A stretch of DNA of 64,000 nt from Escherichia phage vB_EcoM_ULIM9, in sequence record OQ850288; one strand, 5' to 3'. A program made the position numbers and the translations under genes. Position 1 is the first letter of the stretch; every line of letters starts with the position of its first letter. The notes under the pieces are model-generated. The model was not told the DNA's origin and did not search any database. It saw only the letters and a list, made by a program, of their open reading frames with translations. Shown here piece after piece: positions 41,571-60,520 of this stretch.

Positions 41571-43187
41571 TCAACGTCTAAGCCCCTCATATGGGTTTCC
41601 TCTCACTAAATCTGTGTGAGCACCCATTGATGGTGGCTTGAATAATTTAACTTCGTTAAGACTGTTGAAAGCATCACTGGTAGCATCCACTTGGTCATCT
41701 TTAGTTTTACCGTCACCACAAAAGCCTTCAAGTTCTTGAAAGTAAGCTTCATTCCAACTACCTCTCAAGACTTTTACAAGTCCAGCTTCAGAAGCAGCAG
41801 AAAATCCCGCAAAGCGGGTAACTTTATCTTTATTTGTTGGTTTGGCTCTTGCTCGATAACCTTTCTCGGCAAGTTTCCTGATGAGGGATGTTGCGTAGGA
41901 TTTACCAGCAGCGCCTGGGTCTTGAGGGATAAAAATACCAGTTCGCTTACCGTCACTTTCAGCAGTCAAATTAATTTGTGTTTCGACTCCAGAGGGTCTA
42001 TCTCTAAATCTTACTACATCAATGATATAATAGCAACCGTCTTTTTTAGATTTACCCATCTTAACACCTGCTGTCCAGTCTGGATTAGGGTTAACCTCAG
42101 ATGGTAAAGTTGCTGCTAAGTCCCATGCTCTAACATCAAATACATCTTCTGGGAGTGAATCAACAATTTCACACCATTGTCTTTGCCAATAGTTTGAACC
42201 TTCTGCACGAGCCTTCCAGTTACCGAAACGAAGTCTTGCAACGTTTACAGGAGTGTTGTTTTCAAGCTTACCGCGATACTTTGGTTCTAAGAAGTCAAGA
42301 ATCGGGTTATCATCAATCGTACCAGAGATGAAGGTGTATGTTTGAGGAATCTCAAGAGGGAACATTTCAAGAATCTTGTCTCTCTCCCAATCAGAAACCA
42401 TCACACCATCATTCATTACATACCAACGAATACGACCACACTTTTCAGGGTCTGGATAACCTTCTTCATCTAAGAATGGCTCTACCCAATCGTAAATAAA
42501 GTGGTCTCTGTCTGGGTTCATGGAAATCTTCATGTATGAATCGCCTTCAGCACCAGAACGTAGACGGGTTTGTAGGTATGAAATCTGTGAAGCAGAGAAG
42601 TGTGTACCTTCGTCAAAGTAAATAGCTGAGTATTCAATACCCTGATGACCTTCAGCGTGCTTTTCAAGTTCTAGGTAGGTAAACTTGATAGTTGCCCCAG
42701 AAGGGAACGTGATAGTCATTTTCTGCTCGTGAGGAATCCCACCAAACTTACCAAATAGTTTCTTTGCAGCAGGCCATAAACCACCTTGTAGCTGTGTTGT
42801 ATTTCGACGGAAATATACAGCATTATAGTTAGGGTCTTCAATAAATCTTAAAGAGTCCATTAACAATGCAGCAGTTTTACCAGCACCAGCAGCACCACCA
42901 TAGAGAACCAAGTCAGCATTAGTATTTAAAAAGACCTCTTGAGAACCCGGTTGAGGGGCTACATAGTTCTTATCAGTCATCAATTTAAAGATGAGGCGAA
43001 CTTGGTCTGGTGTATATCTTAATAAAGTCAGAATTTGAGTTGGAAGGAATTTAGAGGGGTCTTTACCGAATGACTTGATAATTTCTTTTACTTCATCAGA
43101 AAGCCCCAACTCTCCAGCTAGGACTTTCCTAACATCTTCCACTCGCTTCTGCTTAACAGCATTTAAGTCCATTAAGCGCCTCCGCAA
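41571..43187 (-). CDS. terminase large subunit
   Basis: 538 aa; Walker A LVLYGGAAGAGKTAAL near N-terminus, acidic nuclease-like C-terminal half. Confidence 0.8.
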   Translation of the reverse strand: MRRRLMDLNAVKQKRVEDVRKVLAGELGLSDEVKEIIKSFGKDPSKFLPTQILTLLRYTPDQVRLIFKLMTDKNYVAPQPGSQEVFLNTNADLVLYGGAAGAGKTAALLMDSLRFIEDPNYNAVYFRRNTTQLQGGLWPAAKKLFGKFGGIPHEQKMTITFPSGATIKFTYLELEKHAEGHQGIEYSAIYFDEGTHFSASQISYLQTRLRSGAEGDSYMKISMNPDRDHFIYDWVEPFLDEEGYPDPEKCGRIRWYVMNDGVMVSDWERDKILEMFPLEIPQTYTFISGTIDDNPILDFLEPKYRGKLENNTPVNVARLRFGNWKARAEGSNYWQRQWCEIVDSLPEDVFDVRAWDLAATLPSEVNPNPDWTAGVKMGKSKKDGCYYIIDVVRFRDRPSGVETQINLTAESDGKRTGIFIPQDPGAAGKSYATSLIRKLAEKGYRARAKPTNKDKVTRFAGFSAASEAGLVKVLRGSWNEAYFQELEGFCGDGKTKDDQVDATSDAFNSLNEVKLFKPPSMGAHTDLVRGNPYEGLRR

Positions 43188-43193
43188 ATAGAA

Positions 43194-43394
43194 TTATTCA
43201 GAGTCTGTAGTAGTCTCTTCTTTCTTAACTTCGAACTTTGCATCAACAGCATCAAGAAGTGCATCCATAGATGCTTCTTTAATATCAATACCTGTTGCTA
43301 CAGATAGTCTGTCTGCAATTGCCATAATAGTATTCTGCATAAACTCTAACTTCTTGTTAGCTTCATAAAGTTCTTTATAAACGTTCTCGCTCAT
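43194..43394 (-). CDS. hypothetical protein (66 aa) upstream of terminase
   Basis: ORF track; too small for a typical small terminase. Confidence 0.35.
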   Translation of the reverse strand: MSENVYKELYEANKKLEFMQNTIMAIADRLSVATGIDIKEASMDALLDAVDAKFEVKKEETTTDSE

Positions 43395-43518
43395 TATGTT
43401 TTCTCCAAATAATTAATATTGTTTCCCCTTAAAAAAGACGGCACAGAGACCGTCAAGGAGAAACCACAATGTACGTCAGAGACATACTGTATAAGTCTTC
43501 CTATAAAGTATAACTCTG

Positions 43519-43580
43519 TAAAAAAGCCCTGTCTAAAAATACTCTTCGGTAGCGAAAGGAAGAATACTTATAGCAGGGCA
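43519..43580 (-). terminator. long hairpin plus U-tract downstream of the tRNA array
   Basis: AGCCCTG...CAGGGC outer stem (43525-43579); on minus strand followed by TTTTTT. Confidence 0.4.
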
Positions 43581-43605
43581 TTATTATTATTTTAATTGAG
43601 AGAGA

Positions 43606-43681
43606 GTAAAATAACTTGGAGAATCCGAAGGGACTCGAACCCTTATAAACCTGTTTTGCAGACAGGCACATAGCCATTTCT
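43606..43681 (-). tRNA. tRNA-Cys (anticodon GCA), CCA encoded
   Basis: Hand fold: acceptor GAATCCG/CGGATTC, anticodon loop CUGCAAA, T-arm with TTCGAGT. Confidence 0.55.
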
Positions 43682-43685
43682 GTCA

Positions 43686-43778
43686 CGGATTCAAATTGGA
43701 GGAAGATACCAGACTTGAACTGGTACACCGATTTCTCAGCTACTGGCAGTTTAGCAAACTGCTCCCTTACCTTTTAGG
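43686..43778 (-). tRNA. tRNA-Ser (anticodon GCU), type II long variable arm
   Basis: 93 nt; acceptor GGAAGAT/ATCTTCC, anticodon stem GCAGT/ACTGC with loop UUGCUAA, long variable arm, T-loop TTCAAGT. Confidence 0.55.
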
Positions 43779-43791
43779 GTTAATCTTCCAT

Positions 43792-44526
43792 TTATTTCTG
43801 TAATGCGCTCTTCATTTCTGGTGTTGCAATAGTGTCAATCACACCAGTTTTACAGGCATCGTCAAACCAGTCTGGTAAGATACCTGCTAAGAACCCATTG
43901 ATATTCGTTTTAAGGTACTCTGCAATAAGGGCAGCTTCTTCTTCAATCATCTGCACAACTTCATCTGCATAAGCTGTAATCTTTGAAATACCTTCATTAA
44001 TCTTACTGACAGCTTGGTTAGCTAAATCAGAAACAGTATCAAGACCCTTATCAATAGCATCTTGTAAGTCACTTAACACACCGTTAACACTGTCTAGTGT
44101 GCTGTTAATCATGTCAATAGCTTGCTGACCATACTCTGTAGCAACACCCATAATACCACTAAATGGTGTACAACCAACTTGTTCTCCTGCTGCACCCATA
44201 ACATTGGAATACCCCTTTGCTACCTGCATACGTGATGAAAACTCATCAATAGACTTTTGACCATAGTCTGTTAGGGTCTTAGTAGTTGCTGTAGTGCTTG
44301 TCAGGCTTGTTGTAAAGCTGTTTAGAAGGACTGTTGTAAGTCCAGCAGCAACAAGCTTCTCCTTCATTGTAGGGTCTGTTACAGAGCTAATAGAGCTTAC
44401 AAGTGATGTAGAGGCAGCTACGGTTCCACCGAGAACTGCTGCACCAGTAATAAGTGGGTTAGAAAACCCTTTACCGGTTTTTAAGAGATTAAAAATCTCC
44501 TTACCTTGTTCTGTCATCTCTTTCAT
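43792..44526 (-). CDS. hypothetical S/T-rich protein embedded in tRNA array
   Basis: ORF track frame 43792-44742 trimmed to Met at 44524-44526 (MKEMTEQ) because the upstream 72 codons run through two tRNA genes. Confidence 0.5.
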   Translation of the reverse strand: MKEMTEQGKEIFNLLKTGKGFSNPLITGAAVLGGTVAASTSLVSSISSVTDPTMKEKLVAAGLTTVLLNSFTTSLTSTTATTKTLTDYGQKSIDEFSSRMQVAKGYSNVMGAAGEQVGCTPFSGIMGVATEYGQQAIDMINSTLDSVNGVLSDLQDAIDKGLDTVSDLANQAVSKINEGISKITAYADEVVQMIEEEAALIAEYLKTNINGFLAGILPDWFDDACKTGVIDTIATPEMKSALQK

Positions 44527-44542
44527 TAAGCACCTTTGAAAT

Positions 44543-44618
44543 TGGTAGTCCAGTGGGATTTGAACCCTCTTCTCATGTTTTTCAGACACGCGCTTTACCA
44601 TATAAGCTACTTGGACTA
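44543..44618 (-). tRNA. tRNA-Phe (anticodon GAA)
   Basis: Anticodon loop CUGAAAA, T-arm GGTTCAAATCC. Confidence 0.5.
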
Positions 44619-44623
44619 TAAAT

Positions 44624-44699
44624 TGGGGTGACCTACGGGATTTGAACCCGTATAGACCATGTTCACAGCATGGGTCATTACCATTTATGATAAGGCCAC
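44624..44699 (-). tRNA. tRNA-His (anticodon GUG)
   Basis: Anticodon stem CCATG/CATGG with loop CUGUGAA; T-arm ACGGG/CCCGT. Confidence 0.55.
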
Positions 44700-44730
44700 A
44701 TTTAAGGACTCTCGTAAGAACCCTTAGAAG

Positions 44731-44806
44731 TGGCAGCGGCATAAGGATTTGAACCTTAATAGGACAGCTTCAGAGACTGCTGCATTGCCAGTTATGCTAT
44801 ACCGCT
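44731..44806 (-). tRNA. tRNA-Gln (anticodon CUG), tentative
   Basis: D-arm GCAT/ATGC, anticodon loop CUCUGAA, T-arm TAAGG/CCTTA. Confidence 0.45.
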
Positions 44807-44811
44807 AAAAT

Positions 44812-44882
44812 TGGTACTCCATATCGGATTCGAACCGATACATAACACAGATTTTAAGTCTGGCCTCTCTGCCAATTGGAGT
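44812..44882 (-). tRNA. tRNA, anticodon read as UAA (Leu-type) but short variable arm; isotype uncertain
   Basis: 71 nt; T-arm ATCGG/CCGAT perfect; anticodon loop CUUAAAA. Confidence 0.4.
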
Positions 44883-44892
44883 AATGGAGCAT

Positions 44893-44968
44893 TGGCGGGG
44901 GATGTTGGAATTGAACCAACTTCTTCGATTTCAAAGACCGAGGTTTTAACCTTGTAAACTAATCCCCT
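44893..44968 (-). tRNA. tRNA-Gln (anticodon UUG), tentative
   Basis: D-stem GTTT/AAAC, anticodon loop CUUUGAA, T-arm GTTGG/CCAAC. Confidence 0.45.
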
Positions 44969-44976
44969 TTAATTCT

Positions 44977-45534
44977 TTACTTTCTCAGTGGATGAATAAA
45001 GAATGCCAACATAACTCTTTCCCTTGAGAATGCTCTTTCTTCTGGGACAACACTTTTTAGTTTCCATCCAATATAAATTCTCCAGTAAAACTGTTTACCA
45101 AAGACTTTAATTGATGGGATAAAAGCGAATAATCCCCAAGCATTACTGTTCCACATTAGGAGATAACCAGTCTGATTATCTTCAGGGTCAGAACTTACGT
45201 TGATATTACCTTTCCACTTAGTAACATCTTTGACATCTCTTCCTAATACATGGTAAGAGAAGTTATAAGCTTTGTTTCTCCAGAGCCATCCGACTCTCTG
45301 CATGTAGACACCAAACTTACCAATCTTTCTAATCTTAGCCCATCTTTTAACGTGACCTTCATCACCATCAATCGGGTTGTCATAGGTTTCCATCCATCTG
45401 AATCCAAAAGGTAGATGTCCTTTCTTCTCACTGTAGAATGGAACTACGAAAGGTGCTAAGATGACTGCTAGGGTTGCTGCAAATGGTTCTAGTAAAGCTA
45501 GGAAAATCCATGAAGCATACTTCAAATATCTCAT
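44977..45534 (-). CDS. membrane protein embedded in tRNA array
   Basis: 185 aa; N-terminal hydrophobic helix (WIFLALLEPFAATLAVILAPFVVPF). Confidence 0.5.
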   Translation of the reverse strand: MRYLKYASWIFLALLEPFAATLAVILAPFVVPFYSEKKGHLPFGFRWMETYDNPIDGDEGHVKRWAKIRKIGKFGVYMQRVGWLWRNKAYNFSYHVLGRDVKDVTKWKGNINVSSDPEDNQTGYLLMWNSNAWGLFAFIPSIKVFGKQFYWRIYIGWKLKSVVPEERAFSRERVMLAFFIHPLRK

Positions 45535-45553
45535 CTAAATAGCCTCTTAAAAT

Positions 45554-45631
45554 TGGTGTTCCAAGACGGATTCGAACCGTCACTAATACAAGGTTTGAGC
45601 TTGCATCCTCTGCCAATTGGGATACTGGAAC
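45554..45631 (-). tRNA. tRNA, anticodon read as CAA; isotype uncertain
   Basis: T-arm GACGG/CCGTC; anticodon stem GCAAG/CTTGT with loop CUCAAAC. Confidence 0.4.
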
Positions 45632-45632
45632 A

Positions 45633-45707
45633 TGGTACTCACTAAAGGACTTGAGCCTTTTTCTTCATCTTGTAAGGGTGATGTTTTACCATATAAACTA
45701 AGCGAGT
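45633..45707 (-). tRNA. tRNA-Val (anticodon UAC), tentative
   Basis: D-stem GTTT/AAAC, anticodon loop CUUACAA, T-stem AAAGG/CCTTT. Confidence 0.45.
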
Positions 45708-45802
45708 GTGAAAGAGGTCTGAAGTTGTGCCGCTAACTCAACTCCGTGGAATTTGTTACGGTCTTCAGTTGACACCAGCGGTCTTTCACTTGACCTCTGA
45801 AT

Positions 45803-45879
45803 TGGTGCTGCTCACAGGACTCGAACCTGCATTTCCATCCTTACAAGGGATGTGTAATAGCCAATTATACGAAAGCAGC
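45803..45879 (-). tRNA. tRNA-Thr (anticodon UGU)
   Basis: Anticodon stem CATCC/GGATG perfect, loop CUUGUAA; T-loop TTCGAGT. Confidence 0.55.
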
Positions 45880-45885
45880 TTTATT

Positions 45886-57205: not shown

Positions 57206-57659
57206 AGAAGTAGTCCAAAAAGCAATGCTTGACAACTCAACTAAAGATGACATGTACAAAGAGATTTGTGATAAGTTGAATTGCTCAAGACATGCTGCTA
57301 AAGTTCTTGTACATTGTTTTATCTGGGAATGCTCAGAAGCCTATATGCAATATGTAGCGTTTGAAAGTTCTCACTTACTAGGTGATGTAGAAGCTGGTGA
57401 GAAGCTAAAAGAGCCTGAAGTGAAAACAGTTCCCAAAGTTGGTAATGTATACCCTCTTAAAGATTTCAAGACTGGAAAGATTGTTGCAAAAGGTGTAGTA
57501 GAATCTGTTTATCACGATGGTAAATACTTACTTAAAATATTTGAGTATGATAGCCACTACACACACTTGTGTGGGATTACATTCTTAGTAACAGAAGAAG
57601 ACCTCATTAAGAACAACGGCAACAAGTTTGCAGTTCCAGCTTACCAAGTTTTACGATAA
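57195..57659 (+). CDS. hypothetical protein (154 aa)
   Basis: ORF track. Confidence 0.45.
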   Translation: MKIKEVVQKAMLDNSTKDDMYKEICDKLNCSRHAAKVLVHCFIWECSEAYMQYVAFESSHLLGDVEAGEKLKEPEVKTVPKVGNVYPLKDFKTGKIVAKGVVESVYHDGKYLLKIFEYDSHYTHLCGITFLVTEEDLIKNNGNKFAVPAYQVLR

Positions 57660-58221
57660 TGGTGTGATAGCTATGGAAAAAGATAACTTAAAAGAAGTTG
57701 AAGGTAACTATCTAGTCCTTGACTGGAGTGATATTCGGGAAGCACTCTCCGAAGAAAATCTTGACTGGCTCCAACAAATCATCTTTGCAGTACGGCATAA
57801 CAGAGAGACTGTAAATGGTAAAGAGCCATTAGAAGGAATCTTTGTAGAGAGGTCTTATCCGTTCTATGAAGACACTTTACAGAAAGTTAAGATGTACTTT
57901 AGACAGAAGAACCGTAAAGTAGTCACTATGGTCTCTCTTGGTGGACAGAGTATGTCTATCATGGAAGATATCAACCCTAAGAGACCGAGTAAAGGTGTTT
58001 GTATAAAAATCACAGGTCATGAAGAGTATATCTCAGTGGACGATTTTAGTGTATTCTGTAATGGTTCTGCTGTCTTTAATGGGTTTCACTATGATATCCG
58101 AGTGTACCCAATCAAGGGTGATGCTGTTATGATGCAGATATTTGATAACAACAATGGGTTTACTCATTTTTATCAGACAACTAAGTCATCACTAAAAACA
58201 GTTTTAGAAAGCTTGATTTAA
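57628..58221 (+). CDS. hypothetical protein (197 aa)
   Basis: ORF track; last gene before a terminator. Confidence 0.5.
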   Translation: MQFQLTKFYDNGVIAMEKDNLKEVEGNYLVLDWSDIREALSEENLDWLQQIIFAVRHNRETVNGKEPLEGIFVERSYPFYEDTLQKVKMYFRQKNRKVVTMVSLGGQSMSIMEDINPKRPSKGVCIKITGHEEYISVDDFSVFCNGSAVFNGFHYDIRVYPIKGDAVMMQIFDNNNGFTHFYQTTKSSLKTVLESLI

Positions 58222-58232
58222 AATATCTTAAG

Positions 58233-58265
58233 AGCCTCCTTAATTGGGGGCTTTTTAATTTTTAT
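58233..58265 (+). terminator. intrinsic terminator ending the plus-strand gene block
   Basis: AGCCTCC-ttaattg-GGGGGCT followed by TTTTTAATTTTT. Confidence 0.55.
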
Positions 58266-58269
58266 AAAA

Positions 58270-59798
58270 TTTTATCGGTTGTCCCAACCTCTGGGTCACC
58301 ATCATATGTGAATAAAATATCTACCCTTCTTAACAACCTTCTTAATCTTACTCTCTATATAGTTATATAGTACTATATAGTATCTTAGTATCTATCTAGT
58401 GGTCTTAATAGCCCCTCTGTATAGACCTTCTAAACACTCTTCTAACAAGCCTTCTTAACAACCTATACAATCACCTTAACCATCTCTCTATACCCTCTTA
58501 GAAGCCCCTATACACCTCTTAATCTCTAGGTAAGCTATGTTACCCTCTATAGGTGTTCACTAGGTATTACTAAGCCTCTATATAGACTGTTTTAACAAAC
58601 TTAACAGGAATATCTTTACAGACCTTATCTCACAAGGTCTAACACGGTACTAACAAGGTATCTTATAAGCCTGTTATTACCTGTATTTTAGAAAGACTGT
58701 ATAGGTAATTATTCAGATTTTTAAAATTTTTATAAAATAGGACTGTCAAGTCATTTTTTAGGGTCTTTGAAGGAACTGAAAAATATCTGTAGAAGATGTA
58801 TATCTGCTTGGTAGCCCTTAACATCCCTGTAACATCCCCTTTGCAAAATTTTAAAATATCCTTAACAATCTCTTAACAACTCTCTCAAGCTCTTAACATC
58901 TCTTCAGAGGTCTTAACAGATTCTTAACAGAACTAACAAAGCTGTAACAAGTTCTTAACAGTCGATACATGGTCTTTATAGTTTCTTAACAGATGACTAA
59001 CAAGAGCTAACAAGTTAATTTTTAAGAGTTATTTTGTTAAGACAATTAACAAGTTCCTAACAAGTGTCTAATCTTTTTAACAAGCTATTAACATGGTCAC
59101 TATCTCTTTTCTTATCGTTCCCTTTCACTCTTAGTGATTCTCTAAATAGCCCTCTTAAAAGCTCTCTATAGCTCTTTGTAAGCTCTTTTAAGTCTCTTCC
59201 TAGTAATTACACCCCAACTATGAAGAAAGCTCTTTATAGGGCTTTACAGGGGCTTTAAAGGCTCTTACAAGGCTTTTACTTGGTCTTAACAGAGATTTAA
59301 CAAGGGGCTAACAAGTTGCTAACAAGTGCCTTAAAAGCATAACTATGTAGGGATTGTTAAGAAATTGTTAAGAAAATGTTAAGGGGGCTAGCATTTACGT
59401 AACTTTTAAGCAACTTTTAATCTACTTCATAGCCCCTATAACATACTTTTAAGACTCTAACAAGCCCTTTTTAGTTATTCACAAGAATACTGACGAGATG
59501 ATAAAGCTTACACCCTTATAAGATTCTTTTAAGCCTCTATAAAGCCCTGTAAAGAGCTTTTTAAGGTTGGTTAATGCAATCCCTTAAGTTAGGTTGATAA
59601 GGCTGTTATAGAGCTTTATAGAGCGTTTTAGGGGTTGCCCTTCCCTTTCGGGTTATGGGCTTATATTTAAGTTGATTTGATAAGGGGCTATAGAGTAATC
59701 TATAGAGTTATTGCTTTTTAAGGTATGAGATAGATTCTATCGAATTAGTGGGATAGATTCTGGAAAGGGAAAGGATTGTATAGGGATTTGATAAGACG
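58270..59798. repeat. ORF-free, strand-skewed region dense in short direct repeats
   Basis: No ORF of 60 aa or more except one overlapping the flanking terminator; plus strand very G-poor; recurring CTTAACA(A/G), CTAACAAG, (C)TATAGAG, TGTTAAG x3 near 59350, GGGATAGATTCT x2 near 59730. Confidence 0.6.
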
Positions 59799-59826
59799 TA
59801 AAAAAGCCCCTATGAGAAAGGGGCTG
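59799..59826 (-). terminator. intrinsic terminator ending the minus-strand small-gene block
   Basis: Minus-strand hairpin AGCCCC-loop-GGGGCT followed by TTTTTT. Confidence 0.55.
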
Positions 59827-59863: not shown

Positions 59864-60112
59864 TTAGTTGTAACCTTGTTTATTGTAGTACAGGGAAACA
59901 ATCAAGTCACCCCAGTAATGATAGTGATGCTCGTCGTTTAATGCCTCTTTTACAGCATCTTTCCAGAAGTCATCAGTAGGGTTATAATCTGGAATAACTT
60001 GTTTGATAACTGTCTTCACTAATGAAAAACACTCATCAGTTCCACCAATATCGAATTTAACGTCCAGAGTATAACAGCCATAGGCATTGACAGTAGCGCG
60101 GATAGTTGCCAT
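59864..60112 (-). CDS. hypothetical protein (82 aa)
   Basis: ORF track; preceded by type A cassette. Confidence 0.5.
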   Translation of the reverse strand: MATIRATVNAYGCYTLDVKFDIGGTDECFSLVKTVIKQVIPDYNPTDDFWKDAVKEALNDEHHYHYWGDLIVSLYYNKQGYN

Positions 60113-60120
60113 TTTTGAAT

Positions 60121-60184
60121 CTCCTAGTTTAAGGGTTTTATTTAGTGGGGAGGTTATCGCCTCCCGTTGATTAGTAATTTACTG
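60121..60184 (-). repeat. type A upstream cassette, copy 1 (variant)
   Basis: CTCCTAGTTTAAGGGTTTTATTTAGTGGGGAGG-ttatcg-CCTCCCCGTTGATTAG; hairpin kept by compensatory changes. Confidence 0.6.
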
Positions 60185-60442: not shown

Positions 60443-60451
60443 CTTGATAAC

Positions 60452-60520
60452 TCCAGTTTAGGACTTTATTTAGTGGGGAAGGTCATTCCCTCCCCGTTGA
60501 TTGACAATTTACAGACTTTT
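60452..60520 (-). repeat. type A upstream cassette, copy 2
   Basis: CTCCAGTTTAGGACTTTATTTAGTGGGGAAGG-tcatt-CCCTCCCCGTTGATTGACAATTTACAGAC; hairpin 60476-60496. Confidence 0.65.

Follow-up and report, generated by a model that had tools for sequence, protein, structure and literature searches.

Records of relatives place the probable chromosome ends of Escherichia phage vB_EcoM_ULIM9 in a gene-free island of phased TAACA boxes

We analysed a window of 64,000 nucleotides, the whole stretch of DNA at hand, from Escherichia phage vB_EcoM_ULIM9 (sequence record OQ850288), and here describe a non-coding region of about 1.5 kb at positions 58270-59798 of that window. A first-pass annotation, made by a model from the letters and their open reading frames (ORFs), had singled out this region as a candidate genome terminus, packaging site or replication origin. 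Our comparisons indicate that the two ends of a linear virion chromosome, that of a Felix O1-like myovirus, very probably meet here head to tail, as they do in a collapsed assembly or a replicative concatemer. In order, the junction would join the right-end unique non-coding DNA (59389-59798), one copy of a direct terminal repeat (DTR) of about 579 bp (58810-59388), and the left-end unique non-coding DNA (58270-58809).

In the phage collection, 256 records matched the region together with its surroundings, at 80-93% identity. All were Felixounavirus or relatives, with Mooglevirus at the low end of the identity range, and both of these genera are Felix O1-like myoviruses; by sequence, the window is a Felixounavirus genome. 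It carries a portal gene and codes for a DNA polymerase, a T7 gp4-like primase-helicase and the terminase TerL (41571-43187), which has Terminase_6N and Terminase_6C domains. As the first-pass annotation had it, the region is an island between the intrinsic terminators of two converging gene blocks, and homologous terminators are annotated on both sides in AYO145A and Moogle. From 58222 to 59775 (1554 bp) there is no ORF of 60 aa or more. The region had also been called the longest such stretch in the window, and here the absence of ORFs stood but the rank did not: it is the longest stretch without a gene of any kind and only the second-longest without an ORF, being exceeded by 45937-47964 (2028 bp) within a cluster of 21 tRNA genes. 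Small 'hypothetical proteins' annotated across the region in several public records (E9, UAB_69 and the LMP phages) are almost certainly spurious. A structured non-coding RNA gene was not supported: an Rfam scan of the region at a permissive threshold returned two chance-level matches (best E = 0.13) far under the gathering scores, no tRNA lies inside 58270-59798, and the register of the one large dyad described below is not conserved. The features that frame the junction are the following, with a slash marking the DTR boundary.

58230-58265, plus strand: intrinsic terminator of the plus-strand gene block (last gene 57628-58221), a 10 bp stem with 5 GC pairs and a T-run; hairpin at 58230-58255
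58270-58809, no strand: left-end unique non-coding flank, with forward CTCTATA/TATATAG units at 58340-58590 and a few TAACA boxes
58795-58824, plus strand: left DTR boundary block GATGTATATCTGCTT/GGTAGCCCTTAACAT, with the DTR start at 58810 (58808 by UAB_69 and by Erwinia phage vB_EamM-M7, hereafter M7)
58810-59388, no strand: putative 579 bp DTR, placed by terminal duplications, annotated DTRs and record ends of relatives
59376-59400, minus strand: right DTR boundary block ATGTTAAGGGGGC/TAGCATTTACG, nearly invariant; M7 homologue ATGTAAAAGTGGCTAA/CC
59389-59798, no strand: right-end unique non-coding flank, with inverted units (CTTTTAAG, TATAGAG)
59799-59826, minus strand: intrinsic terminator of the minus-strand gene block (last gene 59864-60112); hairpin at 59825-59805

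Public records begin or end within the region, so we mapped record ends onto the window. In the E9 record, whose termini were set with PhageTerm (PMC11737134), the first and last 580 bp are identical, the start corresponds to window position 59388 and the end to 58810. ECP2307, deposited in the opposite orientation, carries an exact terminal duplication of 592 bp with the same two boundaries, and M7 has an exact DTR of 444 bp with homologous boundary sequences. These three orthologues thus bear the same sequence at both ends, as the DTR class requires, and the boundaries show the conservation among relatives that site-specific cutting would predict. A search with 58810-59388 showed that the records of ZX4221, D4, I14.1, CRP22, H12, GE_vB_7A and ECOH1 also start or end at the DTR boundaries. 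The UAB_69 record annotates a 'DTR' equivalent to window 58808-59390, the Pr103Blw record annotates a 581 bp 'short direct terminal repeat' starting at 58810, and SPJ41 starts at 58810 as well. At least 10 independent records break at identical coordinates, consistent with fixed unique ends.

Published work on relatives points the same way. In UAB_Phi87, two specific SpeI fragments were lost to Bal31, the run-off sequencing signal fell away at the ends, and the restriction pattern was unaffected by heat, giving a DTR of 608 bp and no cos ends; the same study grouped the terminases into a 'Felixounalikevirus DTR group' (PMC4837284). PhageTerm gave DTRs of 581 bp in Pr103Blw (PMC8303462) and 613 bp in Ro111lw (PMC6454146), and the original Felix O1 paper had inferred 'short terminal repeats' only from a size difference (PMC3185647). 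A cos site was rejected on the 444-592 bp terminal duplications of relatives and the negative heat test in UAB_Phi87 (PMC4837284). Homology to these mapped relatives shows the virion ending at two invariant boundary sequences, with the DNA between them predicted at both packaged ends. The DTR of this phage would accordingly be expected at both ends of its virion DNA, and it would be single in the window because the assembly was collapsed or circularised. The proposal of a genome terminus or terminal-repeat boundary was therefore strongly supported, with the relatives' boundaries falling at 58810 and 59388; a packaging site at the region follows by inference, and the origin, weighed below, was not supported.

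Three other record ends in or near the region were rejected as termini. The 127 bp terminal overlap of NJ12 near 58801-58927 is an assembler k-mer artefact and not a DTR, the ends of RPN213 (58731/58732) are an arbitrary opening point, and BPS15Q2 starts at 59402, near the right boundary but with no duplication. Two further records were anomalous: one that matches Felixounavirus is labelled Staphylococcus, which is probably a mislabel, and in GE_vB_B3, a record of 109 kb, the region occurs twice, probably through misassembly.

The boundaries themselves are conserved. The left boundary block, to which the record ends of E9, ECP2307, Pr103Blw and SPJ41 map, is invariant in nine genomes of two genera and present in phiSUSP1, and its M7 homologue reads TGTATATCTAC/TTAGTGGCC. 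The two boundaries are mirrored: the left reads ...CTGCTT/GGTAGCCCTTAACAT and the right, on the minus strand, ...AAATGCTA/GCCCCCTTAACAT, so that GCCCCCTTAACAT runs inward as the mirror of GCCCTTAACAT at the left. The motif GCCC(N0-2)TTAACAT occurs in the 64 kb window only at these two sites, in opposite orientation.

The dense short direct repeats reported by the first-pass annotation were present in the numbers it gave and are up to about 100-fold enriched. The region holds CTTAACA 12 times, CTTAACA[AG] 10 times and CTAACAAG 8 times, the last against 5 occurrences on both strands of the remaining 62.5 kb (about 110-fold), and TAACAAG is enriched 66-fold relative to the rest of the window. A position weight matrix (PWM) derived from the boxes matched 19.6 times per kb inside the region and 1.26 times per kb outside it. 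Periodicity of about 10.7 bp runs through the whole 1.5 kb and is strongest across 58810-59388, with autocorrelation z scores of 11.2 (lag 11), 6.3 (lag 21) and about 4 (lags 31-32), and Tandem Repeats Finder (TRF) returned many period-11 arrays. Within the DTR lie 3-4 inverted TAACA boxes and 21 forward TAACA cores with the consensus (C/T)TAACA(A/G), in two arrays at 58817-59095 and 59285-59326, and the spacings of 9-12, 20-22 or 31 bp place the boxes on one helical face. The tandem TGTTAAG triplet that had been noticed near 59350 was found at 59355, 59366 and 59377, at exact 11 bp spacing. The arrays are laid out as follows.

58817-59095, plus strand: main forward array of about 17 (C/T)TAACA(A/G) boxes, from spacing analysis and the PWM
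59100-59285, plus strand: related units of about 11 bp within the DTR (GCTCTTTATAG, GGCTTTACAG, GGCTTTAAAG, GCTCTTACAAG), from repeat families, with periods of 11 and 20-21
59285-59326, plus strand: second forward array of 4 boxes at exact 11 bp spacing (period 11, 85% matches)
59354-59383, minus strand: three inverted boxes (TGTTAAG) at exact 11 bp spacing, reaching the right DTR boundary (95% matches; 3-6 copies in relatives)

The related units of about 11 bp (GCTCTTTATAG, GGCTTTACAG, GGCTTTAAAG and others) recur in the right flank.

An alignment of nine genomes was made, drawn from Felixounavirus and Mooglevirus. Identity was 85-98% in most bins of 30 bp, and the TAACA cores were 94-97.5% conserved versus 84-86% for the spacers (permutation p < 0.0002); the indels were 11 bp units. 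A scan of IMG/VR with the boundary block returned 23 contigs, mostly of the same isolates, which said nothing about contig ends but served for DTR length statistics. The 23 distinct DTR sequences, metagenomic contigs included, ranged from 569 to 658 bp, their differences from 579 clustering at -10, 0, +11-13, +22-24, +33-35, +44-46, +54 and +79, and box numbers were stable at 18-23 forward and 3-6 inverted.

Across four genera, the terminal non-coding region is conserved beyond its neighbouring genes. The non-coding DNA has 62-81% identical positions versus 21-63% for the adjacent genes, and the flank at 58270-58809 alone is 75-80% identical versus 28-46%; the flanking protein is only 49% identical in Moogle and 56% in phiSUSP1. 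In the Suspvirus phiSUSP1 the entire region is retained, 77% identical, the boundaries being the same. In M7, a Kolesnikvirus, blastn detected the left boundary block only, and the left half of the DTR carries forward CTTAACA boxes, the right half about 15 inverted TGTTAA boxes spaced by 11 bp. The M7 flanks bear other motifs (TTAGAAG and CTGAGAAG); the TTAACA box is nonetheless retained.

The polarity of the units switches across the junction, with CTCTATA units forward in the left flank and inverted as TATAGAG in the right, and this switch gives rise both to the strand skew and to a long imperfect dyad. GC skew reached -0.6 at 58300-58500 and +0.5 at 59600-59800, where the inverted units make the plus strand G-rich. 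The extreme skew described in the first-pass annotation was accordingly real, but the plus strand is not 'almost devoid of G' at 58300-58560, where G makes up 22 of 261 bases (8.4%). Folded as single-stranded DNA, the dyad gave -53.7 kcal/mol versus -33.7 ± 3.7 for shuffles (z = -5.4), and the left DTR boundary gave nothing comparable (z = -0.7). Dyad potential around the right boundary was conserved in 9 of 9 genomes (z = -3.2 to -7.1), and in M7 it lies mid-DTR (z = -4.9). A hairpin conserved in register at the right boundary was rejected, as relatives carry an extra unit in one arm and the M7 dyad is mid-DTR. The dyad and two further elements of the right flank are:

59226-59272 and 59514-59560, no strand: arms of a large imperfect dyad with 85% complementarity, whose centre lies no more than about 5 bp from the right DTR boundary
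59633-59668, plus strand: invariant hairpin-like 36 bp block GGTTGCCCTTCCCTTTCGGGTTATGGGCTTATATTT, lying some 245-280 bp beyond the right DTR boundary, identical in 9 of 9 aligned genomes and also conserved in phiSUSP1
59727-59761, no strand: variable palindromic insert GATAGATTCTATCGAAT..., missing at this site from most relatives

The last of these contains the pair of GGGATAGATTCT copies that had been remarked on near 59730. The pair is present (G[GA]GATAGATTCT at 59727 and 59750), but it sits in the least conserved part of the region, and the insert looks like no core part of the element. Two families of palindromic inserts of 22-27 bp occupy differing sites across genomes (heid, mio, UAB_69, Moogle and typing phage 12). 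Besides its copy here, the family GATAGATTCTATCGAAT(C/T)A is found in the terminator loop of mio, in Moogle immediately left of the DTR, and in UAB_69 near 59462; the family TAGGGATTGGTAACAATACCAAT is not in this window and occupies three different sites in heid, UAB_69 and typing phage 12. These inserts behave like tiny mobile hairpins or repair footprints.

Other repeats and gaps in the window were also considered. A minus-strand intergenic element of about 65 bp is repeated at 60110-60183 and 60451-60512, after the stop codons of consecutive small genes; in it a GGGGAGG...CCTCCCC stem-loop precedes ACTAAATAAA..CCTAAACT.GAG, after which comes the next start codon, and it may be an attenuator or RNA-processing element. 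It was rejected as kin of the DTR motifs, since these are unrelated stem-loops, so general promoter or terminator elements do not account for the flank motifs. The published 57 bp intergenic repeat of Felix O1, which shares the CTTTAnAG motif style, is not present in the window. The 21 tRNA genes are clustered on the minus strand at 43617-48295 and include 1074 bp without a called gene between tRNA-Ser (end 46553) and tRNA-Asp (start 47628). A mechanically called 75-aa ORF at 43501-43728 overlaps tRNA-Cys (43617-43692) and matches PHROG_20550 (E = 6e-53); it looks like a spurious ORF family propagated through annotations.

These data suggest how the junction might work during packaging. Under the short exact DTR model derived from T7, where a hairpin intermediate has been reported (PMC4281155; classification in PMC4837284), replication would yield concatemers with one repeat per junction. 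The terminase (TerL) would act at the junction during packaging, and each boundary would be cut or nicked a few bases outside the inward-facing GCCC(CC)TTAACAT. The repeat would then be copied by strand displacement or primed synthesis, leaving a full copy at each daughter end. The approximately 25 TAACA boxes, each a conserved core of 5-7 bp with a variable spacer in 11 bp phase, may form a one-face array for a recognition protein that could occupy them side by side, as winged-helix or small-terminase proteins do; a 7+4 bp pattern is what the winged helices of small terminases and PhoB/OmpR-type proteins give when bound in tandem. The inverted boxes and the dyad near the right boundary would make the two ends asymmetric and non-equivalent, which may set the direction of packaging or supply a hairpin or cruciform intermediate as reported for T7. 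The convergent terminators would keep transcription out of the junction, and in the virion both terminal gene blocks would be transcribed toward the ends, stopping at terminators short of the non-coding terminal DNA. We tentatively propose that the phased boxes, the mirrored GCCC(CC)TTAACAT and the dyad together constitute the apparatus by which a small-terminase-like protein, conserved across Ounavirinae, would recognise and process the junction, a possibility to which we give rather less than even weight.

Several points weigh against parts of this account. The repeat is single in the window, and the end positions in this phage come from its homologues and not from observation. The boundaries also differ by 2-3 bp between sources, being 58810/59388 where derived from PhageTerm and 58808/59390-59391 by UAB_69 and M7, which could reflect short overhangs, library end-polishing or annotation imprecision; the PhageTerm-derived positions lie further inside, and UAB_69 comes from the laboratory that mapped UAB_Phi87. 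The boundary motif was defined after both sites had been seen, which makes its uniqueness a description, not a test. Indels of 11 bp are equally expected from slippage in an 11 bp array without selection for phase, and a specific hairpin intermediate is speculative given that the register of the dyad is not conserved and that it has moved in M7. To our knowledge, no protein is known to bind TAACA boxes. No small terminase was recognisable near TerL or among the other ORFs scanned, and the Felix O1 paper agrees (PMC3185647). Directly upstream of TerL, in the same frame and separated from it by one stop codon, lies a 66-aa acidic ORF (43194-43394, PHROG_4397) that has no Pfam or PDB relative. 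It was set aside as an ordinary separate gene, the TerL ATG having a Shine-Dalgarno sequence in front of it, and it is no obvious DNA-binding protein.

The iteration of motifs in an untranscribed island was sound ground for expecting a cis-acting DNA site. If the region were or contained a replication origin, the boxes would be initiator iterons and the A+T-rich stretch near 58685-58760 the unwinding element. Iterated, phased and conserved short repeats in a gene-free, transcription-free island fit that picture, as do the well-conserved 60 bp of 82% A+T just outside the DTR, two perfect matches to the DnaA box (TTATTCACA; 58307-58315 and 59475-59483, about 0.24 expected from the window density), and the switch of both gene orientation and GC skew at the region. 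The DnaA-box matches, however, are not conserved within the genus and are missing from M7, and the region contains no IHF consensus. No initiator-like gene is adjacent, the seven flanking ORFs having no Pfam match and only PHROGs of unknown function, and the switch in skew is explained by convergent genes and motif polarity. T7-type origins are promoter-dependent; this phage encodes a T7 gp4-like primase-helicase, yet a promoter scan of the region found no enrichment (11 versus 8.8 expected). The physical ends that map here already account for a conserved cis-acting site. We consider an origin improbable.

The boxes might instead serve the DNA ends after injection, by binding a protein of phage or host that protects the ends from RecBCD, tethers or circularises the genome, or promotes DTR-DTR recombination into concatemers. 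Boxes within the DTR would enter the cell at either end of each injected genome, they are phased and conserved, and according to a PhageMaP preprint Bas63 may have no RecBCD inhibitor, so that its ends could be exposed (10.1101/2024.10.10.617714). The invariant boundaries, with inverted boxes abutting one of them, point to site-specific cutting and away from generic binding of ends; we regard this role as unlikely, although it is compatible with one in packaging. The repeats could also be structural only, the period of about 10.7 bp giving curved or wrappable DNA that eases the first or last segment into the portal or capsid with no protein reading the sequence, or could be products of neutral slippage. 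Here the periodicity running through the DTR and both flanks, the unit-sized indels of the kind that slippage gives, and a weak 10-11 bp periodicity in a coding control segment must be set against a TAACA pentamer that is far better conserved than the spacers and retained in Erwinia phages, and against a region conserved beyond its neighbouring genes. A purely structural or neutral origin of the repeats thus seems improbable too, and we favour the chromosome junction.

The DTR of the genus is already published and annotated in GenBank, and the central idea is known biology for orthologous sequence. The literature we searched included the Felix O1 genome, UAB_Phi87, Felixounavirus comparative-genomics and Bas63 cryo-EM papers and the PhageMaP preprint, with most subscription journals outside the search, and in it we found neither the box arrays nor the mirrored boundary motif described, and neither the dyad nor the 11 bp quantisation of length. 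The published accounts searched give the DTR length and packaging class only (PMC3185647, PMC4837284, PMC6454146). The box architecture seems to be a modest new detail, for which absence from the literature is weak evidence. In practice, the record is best opened at about 58810 or 59388, with about 579 bp to be added for the true virion length. Recognition and duplication of short terminal repeats are only partly solved even for T7, and the phased boxes, mirrored boundaries and dyad offer a clear grammar with mutational targets for both steps, as well as a way to look for the missing small terminase of Felix O1-like phages, a group in wide use for Salmonella and E. coli biocontrol and for engineering. 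If the proposed apparatus is real, it would provide a second, independently evolved system beside T7 for dissecting short-DTR duplication, in which nick positions, repeat copying and packaging direction would be approachable and natural variation, with box number changing in 11 bp quanta and the dyad moved in Erwinia phages, would be of use.

Among known systems, the nearest by descent are the DTRs of other Ounavirinae (UAB_Phi87, Pr103Blw, Ro111lw, UAB_69 and M7). They are orthologous sequence, 80-93% identical, with the same boundaries, the same length class (444-658 bp) and the same place between the same convergent gene blocks; nothing essential differs, and the present genome has a 579 bp copy and a palindromic insert in its right flank. 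Sites of the lambda cosB and SPP1 pac type would share with the region repeated short protein-binding boxes by a site-specific terminase cut, boxes that could wrap a multimeric DNA-binding subunit. Unlike those sites, the ends here are not cohesive (UAB_Phi87 heat test, PMC4837284) and not permuted, the boxes are many more (about 25), and no small terminase is recognisable. Iteron origins are alike in their phased repeats, conserved core, variable spacer, non-coding island and nearby A+T-rich stretch, but in the present region there is no adjacent initiator gene, DnaA and IHF sites are not conserved, and genome ends map here.

For T7, we rebuilt the concatemer junction from V01146. It carries 13 exact copies of CCTAAAG (20 with a degenerate pattern) on a single strand with a 13 bp period (z = 8.5), spread over the right-unique, terminal-repeat (160 bp) and left-unique parts. 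The likeness lies in a short exact DTR combined with one heptamer, mostly in one orientation and at a regular period, across a right-unique/repeat/left-unique layout; both phages would need the repeat duplicated during packaging from concatemers, for which a hairpin intermediate has been reported in T7 (PMC4281155). An array of the T7 SRL/SRR type is matched in architecture, with 25 forward boxes here versus 13-20 in T7, and without homology. The heptamer is CTTAACA here versus CCTAAAG in T7, the period 11 versus 13 bp and the repeat 579 versus 160 bp. The T7 left flank has early promoters and all T7 genes read rightward, whereas here the terminal blocks read toward the ends; T7 lacks an inverted set of boundary boxes (0 minus-strand CCTAAAG), and the virus families differ. 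On this comparison, the CCTAAAG heptamer arrays of T7 are the closest analogue of the TAACA boxes, in what appears to be a likeness of working and not membership by descent.

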